DNA of 13,895 nt, taken from Kofleriaceae bacterium. GTDB taxonomy: Bacteria > Myxococcota_A > Polyangia > Haliangiales > Haliangiaceae. A program made the position numbers and the translations under genes. The notes under the pieces were generated by a model. That model searched no databases. It was given only the letters and a program-made list of their open reading frames with translations, and was not told the DNA's origin. Of the stretch, positions 1,589 through 13,557 are shown one piece after another. Position 1 is the first letter of the stretch, and the number at the start of each line of letters is the position of its first letter. The stretch spans positions 1-13,895 of the forward strand of contig JBKJLC010000245.1 of assembly GCA_046597055.1 (NCBI GenBank), in the 5' to 3' direction.

Positions 1589-2368
1589 GTGCTCGGATCC
1601 GCCAGGGGACACGTCGCACGCGCGCGCCTCCGGCCGATCGGCGCGGCGATCGTGACCGCCATGGTCGCGAGCGCGAGCGCGCATGCCGACCCGGCGGCCG
1701 CGACGGCCGCGACGGTGACGACCGCGTCGACCGCGTCGACCGCGCCCGGCGCTGATCGGCCGTCGGAGGCGCCGCTGCCGTCGTGCCTCGATCAGTCGAT
1801 CCGCGACGAGCTCGGCCGCGAGCTGCGGCCGCGCGGCGTGCAGAAGCGCGACTTCCAGAAGGACGGCCGGCTGCAGGTGATCGCCCGCGGCGGCCTCTAC
1901 GCCGGCGACCTCACCTCGTCGTCGTGGCTCGCCGGCGGCGCGCTGGCGCTGTGGTTCACCGAGGACTTCGGGATCGAGGCCGGCTTCGACGTCACGCCGA
2001 TCGCGCTCGACCTCGACGATCCGCTCGCCGACTTCTTCGGCGACGACCGGTTCGAGAAGGGGCTCGGCTTCCTGCCACTCGCGAACCTCCTGTGGTCGCC
2101 CATCCACACCAAGCTGCGGATCGGCGACGACATCGTCCACGGCGACTTCCTCTTCTACGCCGGCGGGGGTCGCCTGATCCACGACAGCGTCCAGGGCGTC
2201 ACCTTCGATGCCGGGTTCGCGCTCGACCTGTTCACCAGCAACCTCGTCACGGTCCGCTTCGACGTGCGCGACGTGATGGCGGTGCAGGAGGCGGTCGCCG
2301 AGACCCGGTTCACCAACAACCTGGTGGCGACCATGGCGCTGACGCTGTGGCTCCCGACCCCGCTATGA
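1589..2368 (+). CDS. Outer membrane beta-barrel protein, myxobacterial GltA/GltB/NfsA-B-like family (barrel 1), ~259 aa
   Basis: Signal peptide ending ...[16 protein letters not shown], Ala/Thr linker, family-type [44 protein letters not shown] and terminal LWLP; alternating amphipathic beta-strands. Start uncertain (ORF is open from 1526; GTG 1589 preferred). Confidence 0.85.
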
Positions 2369-3075
2369 GCAAGCTGGCTGCCACGCTGGTGCTGCTCGCG
2401 GTCGCCGCCGAGCCCGCGCGCGCCGACCCGCGCACCGCCGCGACCGATCCAGCCGAGGCCGTGCGCGCCGAGCGCACCACCGCGATCTGCGTCGACCAGG
2501 AGATCGCCGATCGGCTGGCGGTCAAGCGCAAGCGGCGCGGCGCGGTCGACCGGCTGTTCGTGAAGCAGTCGCGCCACGAGCTGACCGCGCTGGGCGGCTA
2601 CTACGCGTCGGATCTGTTCAGCGGCACCTGGGTCGCGGGCGGCGCGTATACCTATCACATGACCGATCAGACCGCGGTCGAGTTCGGCGGTGGCATGACC
2701 CACGCCAACGCCGACGTGATCCGCGCGATCGAAGATCAACGCGGCGAGGTCCTCGACGACGACTTCGCCCGCGTGCTGTACGCGGAGTCGTTGCTCCTGT
2801 GGAGCCCGGTCTACGGCAAGCTTCGCCTGGGTGGCAGCATTGCCCACTTCGACCTCCATCTCGACCTGGGCGTCGGCGCGGTCGACTCCTCGACCAGCCG
2901 GGGCGCCATGGGCGTGGCAGGGTTGGGGATGAAGCTCTTCGTCGGGCGCGCGCTCGCGTTCCGGATCGACGCTCGCAACCGCGTGTATCGCCAGGAGCTC
3001 CTCGACGAGCGGTTCCTGGTGAACGACGCGGCCGTCACGCTCGGGTTCTCGCTGTTCCTGCCCTTCCGCAACTGA
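2365..3075 (+). CDS. Outer membrane beta-barrel protein, paralog of barrel 1 (GltA/GltB/NfsA-B-like, barrel 2), 236 aa
   Basis: ATG overlaps the previous stop (ATGA 2365-2368). Signal peptide [22 protein letters not shown]; motifs [38 protein letters not shown] and terminal FSLFLP. The ORF-track extension to 1783 is spurious. Confidence 0.88.
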
Positions 3076-3115
3076 ACGTCCGCGACCCCGCGGTCGCACC
3101 CCTTCCGGAGCCGCC

Positions 3116-3970
3116 ATGTTGCCTTCCCTGCCACAGGACCCGGCCCGGCCGTCCGCGAAGCGGACATCGAGCGTCGCGCGCCGTTCGCCCCGCGCGGCCA
3201 TGGCCGTCGTGACCTGGCTGGCCGCGCTCGCGATCATGCTGGCCGCGGCCCCGGCCGACGCCGGCCGTCGCAAGAAGAAGAAGCCCAGGCCCCGGGTCAA
3301 ACCGGCGCCGGTCGAGGCGCCGGTCAAGCCCGAGCCGGCCGACGACGCCAGCACCCCCGAGGTCCCCGACGCGCCGCCCCCCGCGGTGGCGCCGGTCAAG
3401 CCCGAGCCGGTGGTCGCGCCCGCGCCGGTCGCACCCGCGCCGCCCGACGACGCGCGCGGCGCGGTCGACGTCGATGGCCTGCGCCAGGAGTATCTGAAGC
3501 TGCGCGACGAGCTGTTCGAGTCGCGCGCGCGCGCCGCCACGGTGTCGTCGGCGCTCTACTCGACCCGCATCGAGGTCAAGCTCAACTTCACCACCGGCCG
3601 GTTCTACGGGGTGACCCGCGCGATGGTGCGGCTCGACGGCGCCAGCGTGTTCGACGACACCAGCGGGGTGGTCGCCACCGACGACGCGGTCCGGTTCAGC
3701 GGCTGGATCGCGCCCGGCCGCCACGTCCTCACGCTGCGGGTCGAGACCGTCGGCAAGGACGACGAACGGTTCACCTCGGCGACCGAGTCGACCGTGGTCG
3801 TGCAGGCGATCGCCGGCAAGGATCTGACGGTCACCGCCCGCGCCTCGGACGGCGGCGACATCGCGTACGCGTGGAAGAAGAAGCAGCAGGGCAGCTACCA
3901 GCTCGGCATCGACGTCGACGTGCGCACCCAGGCCCGCGCGGCGGAGGAGCAGCGTGCGGCGCGCAAGTAG
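3116..3970 (+). CDS. Exported hypothetical protein: signal peptide, Lys/Pro-rich linker, helical segment and beta-rich C-terminal domain
   Basis: GGAG lies 5 nt before ATG 3116 (alternative ATG 3200). Hydrophobic stretch [19 protein letters not shown], then [13 protein letters not shown], a Pro-rich region, helix [19 protein letters not shown] and beta-strand-like repeats ([21 protein letters not shown]). Codon usage is gene-like and it overlaps the next gene by 17 nt. Confidence 0.8.
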
Positions 3971-12148: not shown

Positions 12149-12168
12149 CCGTGACCGGAGGCATGACC

Positions 12169-12942
12169 ATGATGCACTTGACCCCATCGCTTGTCGTCGC
12201 CAGCGCCCTGCTCGCGGCCGGCTGCACCGAAGATCCTCAGTACGTACGGGCCCCGATGCAGACCGGGCTCGAGGTCGGCGTCGAAGGCACCGAGGCGTTC
12301 ACCGCCAGCGCGACCATCGGCCTGCCGATCGCGCTCGAGAAGCCCGCGGACGCGACCGCGCGCGGCGTGCGCGCCGCCGAGCTCGGGGTCGCGGTGCCGT
12401 ACGTCCGCCTCGGCGATCTCAGCGTCTCGATCGAGTGGACGATCAAGAACCTGGCCAACGCCGAGGGCACCGCCCGCATCGACGTGAACGGCGCCAACGC
12501 CGACTTCGTCTACGTCCCGCTCAACTTCGTGGTCGATCCCGAGGAGGACGAGGAGCCGCCGCCGCTGATGGGCGACATCCCGCTGCGGATCGCGGCCGGC
12601 GCGACCCGGTCGGGCACGTTCCGGGAGGACGAGATCCGCGAGGCGTCGATCGACCTCGAGCTGGTCTCGCGCGGCATGACCAACCCGTTCGCCGCGATGC
12701 TCACCACCAACGAGGACGACCCCGGCGTGATGATCCCGCCCGCGATCGTGCCGCTGGCCGATCTCGGCCTCCTGGTCCGGTTCGACCTCACGTTCGAGGC
12801 CGATCGCCACATGGTCCTCGAGTACGGCATCCGGGTCCGCGATCACCGCGGCATCCTGCACGAGGACCTGCTGTTCGCCCCCGCGGGCGAGCTCACGCCG
12901 TTCGCGCCGGCCGCGTTCACGCCGCCGCCGCCGCCGCCCTGA
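12169..12942 (+). CDS. Uncharacterised lipoprotein, ~257 aa
   Basis: GGAGG (12157-12161) lies 7 nt before ATG 12169 (alternatives 12163, 12172); lipobox LLAAG|CTED; beta-rich acidic mature part with [10 protein letters not shown] and a terminal FTPPPPPP. The ORF-track extension to 10438 is spurious. Confidence 0.82.
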
Positions 12943-12972
12943 CCGGTGCGCGTGTATCATCCCCGTCGACGG

Positions 12973-13557
12973 ATGCGCCGTACTGCTCGCGATCTCGCCC
13001 TGGCCGCTGGCCTGCTCTGCGGCGTGCCGACGGTGGCCGCCGCCGATCGCCCGGCCTCGCAGGGCTTCTACGCGGAGACCGGCTTCGGCGCGACCGGCAA
13101 CCTCGGCGCCGCCCGCAGCTACGCCAAGATCGGCCCCAAGATGTCGCTGCGCGTCGGCTACGACCTGTGGTCGTGGCTGTCGCTCGGGATCGCGGTCGAT
13201 GCCTCGAGCCACGAGGCGACCGTGCCGCCCCCGCCGGTCGGCGAGTGGTACCAGCTCTACCAGGGTCGCGCCGACGCGCGCCTGGGCACTCGCTTCGACA
13301 GCTTCGCCCTCTTCGTCGAGGGCGGCGCCGGCGCCACGTACATCTCGTCGAACATCCTCGGCCAGGTCGGCGTCCTCGATCCGGGCGAGCGCTTCTCGCC
13401 GGTCTTCTCCGGTGGCGGCGGCGGCGAGTACCAGCTGCAGAACCGCCATTACGCCTTCGGCCTCGCCGCCGACTACTGGCTCGCCCCCGCCTTCGACGGC
13501 CTGCAGGGCGTCGAGGCACGCTTCTACCTGCGCTACACCTACGGCGGCCCCCGCTAG
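12973..13557 (+). CDS. GltH (CglE)/NfsH-like small outer membrane beta-barrel protein, ~194 aa
   Basis: Signal peptide MRRTARDLALAAGLLCGVPTVAAA|DR; about 8 amphipathic strands with CglE-like motifs (GFYAETG, RVGYD..WLSLG, FVEGGAG, GGGGEY...RH, YLRYTY); last gene of an A-H-ordered operon. Alternative start GTG 12946. Confidence 0.75.
   Translation: MRRTARDLALAAGLLCGVPTVAAADRPASQGFYAETGFGATGNLGAARSYAKIGPKMSLRVGYDLWSWLSLGIAVDASSHEATVPPPPVGEWYQLYQGRADARLGTRFDSFALFVEGGAGATYISSNILGQVGVLDPGERFSPVFSGGGGGEYQLQNRHYAFGLAADYWLAPAFDGLQGVEARFYLRYTYGGPR

Follow-up and report, generated by a model that had tools for sequence, protein, structure and literature searches.

An Agl-Glt/Nfs-family envelope gene cluster of a Kofleriaceae bacterium, with a candidate GltC partner and a signature lipoprotein

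The stretch of DNA analyzed here, termed the window, is a 13,895-nucleotide (nt) contig of a Kofleriaceae bacterium (JBKJLC010000245.1 of assembly GCA_046597055.1) taken over its full length, and it carries a ten-gene cluster related to the Agl-Glt and Nfs machines of Myxococcus xanthus. Judged from its sequence, the cluster is a member of the Agl-Glt/Nfs family that fails the tests of orthology to Glt and to G4-like clusters and that lacks the FHA domain of NfsG. The cluster may encode a third, non-gliding machine of the Agl-Glt type, vegetative, borrowing an AglRQS-type motor and moving or anchoring a surface cargo, with a lipoprotein, Y, as the outer specificity subunit and an exported protein, X, seated on GltC; we give this reading roughly an even chance of being correct. 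Agl-Glt/Nfs machines have been proposed since 2011-2013 to be versatile surface transporters specialized by cargo and accessories, and two such jobs are known. The cluster itself has already been catalogued; new here are the distribution of X, the signature gene Y, the in-paralogous barrels, a GltG homologue devoid of FHA and a conserved sigma-70-type promoter pattern.

Composition and relationships of the cluster

The genome measures 8.4 Mb (94% complete, 7.6% contamination). Ten open reading frames (ORFs), all on the plus strand, extend from 1589 to 13557 with a coding-type composition (GC content of 0.86-0.97 at third codon positions [GC3] versus 0.44-0.57 at second positions). The gaps from gene 1 to gene 10 are -4, 124, -17, -4, -4, -4, -4, 14 and 30 nt, the stop and start codons mostly overlapping. 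ORF positions, GC3, gaps and profile matches bore out the claim of ten co-oriented envelope genes made in a sequence-only reading of this DNA; the genes are tightly packed. The genes, with lengths in amino acids (aa), are as follows.

1589..2368, plus strand: first GltA/GltB-family outer-membrane barrel, 259 aa (TIGR04565, 62.2 bits; GTG start)
2365..3075, plus strand: second GltA/GltB-family outer-membrane barrel, 236 aa (TIGR04565, 102.9 bits)
3200..3970, plus strand: X, exported protein with a Pro-rich linker and a predicted helix plus beta-sandwich (alternative start 3116)
3954..5960, plus strand: GltC homologue, TPR, 668 aa (NF033756, 93 bits, cut-off 450; trees)
5957..9157, plus strand: GltD homologue, TPR scaffold, 1066 aa (TPR families; tblastn; trees)
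9154..10293, plus strand: GltE homologue, TPR lipoprotein, 379 aa (NF033758, 109 bits, cut-off 225; lipobox Cys20)
10290..10706, plus strand: GltF/CglF homologue, ~138 aa, C-terminal 55 aa conserved (hhalign to glt-like F genes)
10703..12148, plus strand: GltG homologue without an N-terminal FHA, 481 aa (NF033760, positions 201-649/650 only; NF033768, 85.5 bits)
12163..12942, plus strand: Y, lipoprotein with a predicted jelly-roll beta-sandwich (lipobox, invariant Cys; alternative start 12172)
12973..13557, plus strand: GltH/CglE-like barrel, 194 aa (NF033755, 52 bits, E 6.8e-14; PF13505 [OMP_b-brl], 32 bits)

Both barrels at the head of the cluster exceeded the cut-off of TIGR04565 (60 bits), and the matches to the GltC, GltE, GltG and GltH models were all below their equivalog cut-offs. 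The glt-like copies of the same genome likewise scored below the latter, and the GltC cut-off was passed in 1 of 301 genomes of the phylum; close relatives of M. xanthus are therefore apparently scarce in the sample. Gene 5 (D) is TPR-rich and matched the glt-like GltD of the same genome, located on contig C197, in a tblastn search (E 9e-31). Gene 7 (F) had no match to any library model, including NF033764, at E ≤ 0.01; a profile of its family could be aligned to F genes from glt-like loci (hhalign 95.8%, E 7.7e-9), and the glt-like F of the same genome matches NF033764 CglF. The F of the window was nearer to G4-like F genes (E down to 4.5e-9) than to glt-like ones (~1e-3). The C, D, E and F assignments of the sequence-only reading stand on these profiles and on the tblastn and hhalign matches.

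Gene 8 (G) scored 111 bits with the GltG model and ~85 bits with the AgmX/PglI C-terminal domain, above the cut-off of 40 for the latter. It consists of a membrane-proximal cytoplasmic domain, one transmembrane (TM) helix (~153-171), a Pro/Gly linker and a TonB-C-like domain. Positions 1-200 of NF033760 and the N-terminal FHA are missing, whereas the copy on contig C177 covers positions 3-649, and the window G aligns to that 777-aa protein starting at residue 345. The sequence-only description of the cluster is corrected in that G has no N-terminal FHA. Genome-wide, the AgmX/PglI C-terminal domain had 24 matches, 15 of them over the cut-off, far beyond the share of the three Glt-type clusters present. 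Gene 10 (H) matched NF033755 over positions 3-171/172, near its full length, below the cut-off of 70 bits, and is the only GltH/CglE-family match in the genome. Matches to TIGR04565 (two genes) and NF033755 confirmed that there are three barrels; the labels "A" and "B" given to the first two proved to be positional only. These two are 34% identical, and they cluster together against five glt-like barrels (support 100/99, with a long-branch warning); because of this grouping they are, by sequence, in-paralogues, neither being a separate orthologue of GltA or of GltB. The second one groups with the lone barrel present in split clusters (support 80/73). An invariant Cys-x-Asp lies close to the mature N terminus of both (window 1784-1786 and 2488-2490), and a disulfide between the two barrels is a possibility compatible with this motif.

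In a concatenated C-D-E-G tree (51 loci, 2,244 columns, LG+G4 model, quick search, unrooted, support by SH-aLRT [Shimodaira-Hasegawa-like approximate likelihood ratio test] only), 20 window-type, 15 G4-like and 16 glt-like loci were each separated by a branch with a support of 100. The groups had been set by gene content beforehand, four rows were missing one gene, many rows were composition-skewed and M. xanthus sequences were left out. The window cluster fell outside the glt-like clade and outside the G4-like clade (support 100); single-gene trees concurred (85-100), with support of 92-100 for the window-type branch in all four. The tree has three branches, is unrooted and is without the Nfs of M. 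xanthus, and it is compatible with any two of the groups being sisters. C measures 644-733 aa in 19 of the 20 window-type rows versus an estimated 754-925 aa in the G4-like group. The proposal that the cluster is a distinct paralogous variant is borne out by its own branch in the concatenated and in the four single-gene trees.

Three Glt-type copies were found in the genome: the window cluster, a glt-like set and an X-bearing, G4-like paralogue. The glt-like set is distributed over contigs C197 (C and D), C177 (E, F, an FHA-bearing 777-aa G, a TPR gene and a 3956-aa GltI-like gene) and C46 (a barrel pair), so that a separate glt-like set, likely the ordinary gliding genes, does occur, as had been left for checking. 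Its GltC scored 304 bits versus 93 for that of the window, and glt-like GltC was present in 242 of the 301 genomes. The G4-like paralogue, on C274, reads X-C-D-E-G with no barrels alongside, and there are only two A/B pairs in the genome. Two AglRQS-type operons (MotA/ExbB-ExbD-ExbD, matching AglR-type queries) are located on C39 and C233. The window contained no gltI-, gltJ- or gltK-like gene, as had been claimed; as an argument against gliding this absence is weak because the glt-like genes of the genome are themselves scattered. A non-gliding role is better argued from the tree, from the lack of the FHA and from the existence of a separate glt-like set. At the position that gltH occupies in M. 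xanthus, between gltG and gltI, the glt-like loci here (L097:14376-15404, on C177) and in many relatives carry a TPR gene. A GltD search of plasmids found nothing.

Among 29 mapped loci, which had been chosen by X or Y and in which some genomes were counted twice, 28 kept the gene order of the window for the portion covered; the other was an X-C paralogue. The full order from barrel 1 to H was observed in 16 loci of different genomes (C being broken in L040), and a genome of 3.3 Mb, G062, carries a window-type cluster as well. The cluster was split or partly seen in 8 genomes belonging to two other families (e.g., B-X-C-D-E and F-G-Y), and a single barrel was present in 6 loci. X and Y were both conserved in synteny among relatives, as the sequence-only reading had proposed to survey; the layout of ten genes in a single operon is not constant. 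That reading had also named the outcomes that would speak against it; the cluster was not a sole copy inside a Glt or Nfs clade, X and Y were not out of synteny and the C, D, E and F calls did not fail.

An orthologous cluster is already in print. Table S3 of Luciano et al. 2011 (PMC3169522; this and the other cited sources were available in part, and statements drawn from them refer to those parts) tabulates Hoch_3957, 3958 and 3960-3964 of Haliangium ochraceum without a function, at 228, 268, (3959 skipped), 689, 1058, 395, 185 and 474 aa; the corresponding genes of the window measure 259, 236, (X), 668, 1066, 379, 138 and 481 aa. Hoch_3959, Hoch_3965 and any gltH are omitted from the H. ochraceum entries of the table (PMC3169522). 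With these seven genes and Hoch_3965, the orthologue of Y, Hoch_3957-3965 is the orthologous cluster, and the window type is not new to print; going by the numbering, Hoch_3959 would be X and Hoch_3966 would be H. Hoch_6494-6498 and Hoch_2490-2492/5625-5628 match the other two copies of the genome, and the text layout of the GltD tree in the same paper places Hoch_3961 close to MXAN_1922, at weak support, and apart from Hoch_2491 (PMC3169522). Literature searches, which did not extend to subscription papers, found no paper on the window-type branch, X or Y; MXAN_1919/1922/1923/1924 were found in Luciano 2011 only, and Hoch_3959/3960/3961/3965 and sce5944 in none.

Comparison with the known systems places the cluster among them without equating it to any. 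It resembles NfsA-H (MXAN_3371-3378) in having A-H homologues in one operon, no I, J or K and a motor in trans; it differs in X and Y, the in-paralogous barrels, a housekeeping-type promoter and a separate branch (in a tree without M. xanthus sequences), and NfsG (MXAN_3377) is annotated as an FHA/TonB protein of 682 aa whereas the 481-aa G of the window has no FHA (PMC3169522). With Agl-Glt (GltA-K, CglB and AglRQS) it shares homologues of A/B, C, D, E, F, G and H and a predicted envelope-spanning layout, but identity to glt-like loci is ~20-25%, there is no GltI, GltJ, GltK or CglB in the locus, and FHA is lacking. G4-like clusters (MXAN_1919-1923, Hoch_6494-6498 and sce5940-5945; Group B core complex) have, as in the window, X directly before gltC and a G without FHA; unlike the window, they have a longer C, and a barrel, Y or H was found in 0 of 15 (in the DNA fetched). 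The link of these loci to M. xanthus G4 is by gene order and lengths, not by sequence, and an MglA motif, scanned for as a further link through mglA, was found in none of the 48 loci of relatives that were scanned. M. xanthus G4 and G5 are reported as unassigned in function, with motility unaffected by gltD disruption (PMC3169522); gene-distribution and genome-wide fitness data in PMC9946355 and bioRxiv 10.64898/2026.08.28.747804 may bear on G4-like genes. An aglRQS operon lies inside 7 of the 15 G4-like loci. Seven loci (L052, L063-L066, L070 and L087) read X-C-D-E-aglR-Q-S-G, with a motor of their own and an order as in the non-myxobacterial core complex.

Distribution and predicted structure of X and Y

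Neither X nor Y matched the profile library at E ≤ 0.01. Searches with their families gave nothing meaningful in Pfam (1 of 24 members matched, best E 0.0011) or NCBIfam (1 of 14, best E 0.064), and Foldseek returned no match at E ≤ 0.001 for either. In the ESM Atlas, X matched Myxococcota clusters only (0.92-0.94). Of 1,890 representative database matches the top 150 were considered, and one of the 10 examined had a taxon name, Myxococcota. X might be a homologue of a small gene that lies ahead of gltC in core clusters of gammaproteobacteria. The AlphaFold model of the X core (pLDDT 82.8) comprises a long helix followed by a beta-sandwich, the best fold match being transthyretin-like (Z score 8.6, root mean square deviation [rmsd] 2.6, 93 aligned).

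X was present in 226 of the 301 genomes. It lay directly upstream of gltC in 15 of 15 G4-like loci, which were chosen by X and provide no independent test, and in 0 of 16 glt-like loci, for which 1.3-6.7 kb upstream was covered. One protein, P0238, is a natural fusion of five X-type domains with a full G4-type GltC, a single case. X is likely to be a partner of GltC; it is a widespread one, new here, and no private extra of the window-type cluster. The claim that X is specific to this variant is overturned, since G4-like clusters throughout the phylum share it. In P0235, P0236, P0237, P0238, P0239 and P0242 the beta-sandwich of X is present in two to five tandem copies.

Y had no match in a sequence search of the PDB and at best 0.76 in the ESM Atlas. 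The best matches of its AlphaFold model (pLDDT 87.0) were jelly-roll domains, carbohydrate-binding ones included, led by one with a Z score of 6.9, an rmsd of 3.5 and 121 aligned. Cys, Pro and Tyr are kept right after the signal peptide, the Cys being invariant. The orthologue in H. ochraceum is Hoch_3965 (ACY16464.1; 45% identity). Among 41 near relatives, the source genome counted, 27 had Y, as did 25 of the 301 phylum genomes, namely, 25 of 59 of the same class, which we take to be Polyangia, and 0 of 242 elsewhere. Among same-class genomes it was present in 25 of 28 with at least two X matches and in 0 of 31 with fewer; it was also present where the cluster is split. By size, 21 of 28 same-class genomes of at least 5.5 Mb held Y, versus 4 of 31 smaller ones. 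The genomes behind these class-wide counts are incomplete, and related genomes are not independent. Y is the signature gene of the window-type branch. Genome G157, considered as a further window-type carrier, was rejected, its two X matches being a tandem pair within a G4-like cluster.

Promoter pattern, proposed machine and alternatives

The region 5' of the first gene holds a promoter-like site and a divergent gene.

1553..1581, plus strand: sigma-70-type promoter-like site, TTGACC-17 nt-TACCGT (pattern common to 14 of 14 orthologous regions)
120..1499, minus strand: divergent FHA-sigma-54 enhancer-binding protein (FHA, Sigma54_activat and HTH_8 domains)

The pattern TTGAC-17/18 nt-TAnnnT was present 5' of the first gene in all 14 intergenic regions compared; a generic promoter scan missed the site. 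It ends 7 nt ahead of the GTG at 1589, and a transcript from this predicted promoter would be leaderless. Genome-wide the same pattern has 60 occurrences (0.0036 per kb), several of them ahead of housekeeping-like ORFs, which from their N termini we take to be glyQ, lexA, lepA, lon and rpsP. By contrast, nfsA is reported to depend on MrpC, FruA, CsgA and Nla6 (PMC11980068). Many of the 60 sites lie 5-8 nt ahead of a start codon, which suggests that leaderless mRNAs are frequent in the source genome. The enhancer-binding-protein gene adjoins the first barrel in the 14 aligned regions and is missing from L041. Control of the operon by this protein was rejected: no sigma-54 site was found in the 14 aligned regions, and the protein is therefore a neighbor and no shown regulator.

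The proposed non-gliding machine is modeled on the Agl-Glt architecture predicted by Cambillau and Mignot 2025 (PMC11761067). Its proton motor, of the AglRQS type and encoded at another place in the genome, would be borrowed in trans; in M. xanthus, AglR serves both NfsG and GltG, and specialization by cargo and accessories has been proposed (Wartel et al. 2013, PMC3858216). Following what is modeled for M. xanthus (PMC11761067, PMC3169522), G would touch the AglR ring through its TM helix and membrane-proximal domain and would wrap GltD with its linker and TonB-C domain; F would connect G and D to C, and C would hold all three barrels. C would also carry X, as a periplasmic partner of ancestral origin. 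Y, with its conserved strand after the lipid-bearing Cys and its jelly-roll, would stand in for GltK/CglB at the barrels and determine the cargo, a placement drawn by analogy from the first strand of CglB, which docks on GltA/B in the M. xanthus model (PMC11761067). Without an N-terminal FHA and GltI/J the machine would have no link to the MglA/MreB platform, which gives gliding its polarity. The motor coupling of G and the position of Y are inferred by analogy; the position of X, the movement and the cargo, probably a glycan, are likewise proposals. Observed features that speak for such a machine are the separate branch, the glt-like set and the two motor operons elsewhere in the genome, the missing FHA, the promoter pattern, the distribution of Y, also where the cluster is split, and the X-GltC fusion. 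A wider version, a class-wide third branch in which ancestral X, a three-barrel outer module and a cargo-gripping Y form a directional surface-glycan transporter of growing cells, serving neither gliding nor sporulation, is offered tentatively, the chances being against it.

Several observations weigh against this machine as proposed. The Z score of X was tied with those of unrelated folds, and the Y model had no fold match at a Z score of at least 8; both lie in the range of common folds, which indicates no ligand or function. In the split clusters L054, L057, L058, L113 and L115, Y has no barrel near it and no H was observed next to it. The enrichment of the Y branch in large genomes, among kin that are not independent, fits a developmental role equally well, and a sigma-70 consensus is compatible with developmental control. 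The cluster might instead be the Nfs counterpart of its class, independently derived, which would spread spore-coat polysaccharide in sporulation. We consider this unlikely, although the same A-H set stands in one operon without I, J and K, as in nfsA-H (PMC3858216), the genome has no other complete second set (the C274 copy is barrel-less and there are only two A/B pairs), and large genomes are enriched (21/28 versus 4/31). The housekeeping-type promoter in 14 of 14 loci and the presence of the cluster in the 3.3-Mb genome argue against it. So, too, does Sorangium cellulosum So ce56, a fruiting species. In the table of Luciano et al., as available, this strain has no such third cluster; moreover, NfsG is annotated with FHA/TonB and no N-terminal FHA is present on the window G, and the branch falls outside that of the glt-like loci whereas Nfs is reported to be the closest relative of Glt (PMC3169522).

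A stationary, energized complex of the TonB/Tol kind, engaged in outer-membrane upkeep or uptake and no moving transporter, would suit the TonB-C-like domain and single TM helix of G and the missing cytoplasmic links tied to directed movement. The barrels of ~170-200 aa are too small for a plugged TonB-dependent transporter, and the complete C-D-E-F scaffold is retained. Disruption of gltD in M. xanthus G4 and G5 without an effect on motility (PMC3169522) also favors a stationary complex, but Nfs lacks I, J and K and yet moves (PMC3858216), and we regard this explanation as improbable. Most doubtful of all is a contribution to gliding, in which the cluster would either form a second gliding machine or provide the glt-like set with GltH and an outer module. 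In favor of it, no gene of the genome other than gene 10 matches GltH/CglE, GltH is all but indispensable to M. xanthus gliding, and the promoter pattern suggests vegetative expression. Nevertheless, the glt-like set owns a barrel pair (C46), 242 of the 301 genomes have a glt-like GltC and 25 have Y, another gltH could be absent from an assembly that is 94% complete, and the FHA that is predicted to bind GltI (PMC11761067) is lacking in G.

The branch would be a complete third machine, one that the cultured type strain H. ochraceum also carries, with Y (Hoch_3965) as the candidate specificity subunit. The idea of cargo modules is thereby made testable. Should the wider version hold, a surface lipoprotein would be the swappable part that decides the cargo of the motor. 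X would be an unrecognized conserved subunit of the non-gliding paralogues. The family history is revised in that X is widespread and gltH occurs outside the lineages reported in 2011; in the wider version gltH, considered recent at that time (PMC3169522), would be older than proposed.

Flanking sequences

Window positions 1-117 are identical to the end of contig C262 (117 nt, exact), which is probably adjacent. Just 3' of the operon (window ~13550-13680) lies a dispersed repeat of ~120 nt, copies of which occur on more than 10 other contigs at 68-98% identity. The downstream genes (ABC1 kinase, GAF-GGDEF and lipoprotein) are on the opposite strand and variable among relatives. Positions 13751-13894 (minus strand) hold the 3' end of a Wza/OPX polysaccharide-export gene. 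A tie between this fragment and the cluster was ruled out: relatives do not carry it next to the cluster, and it is found at three contig ends. The fragment overlaps the end of C279 (117 nt, 100%), where the remainder of the gene lies, as well as the end of C90, whose ORFs we read as chain-length and glycosyltransferase genes. Its occurrence at three contig ends is likely to represent an assembly branch or a small duplication.

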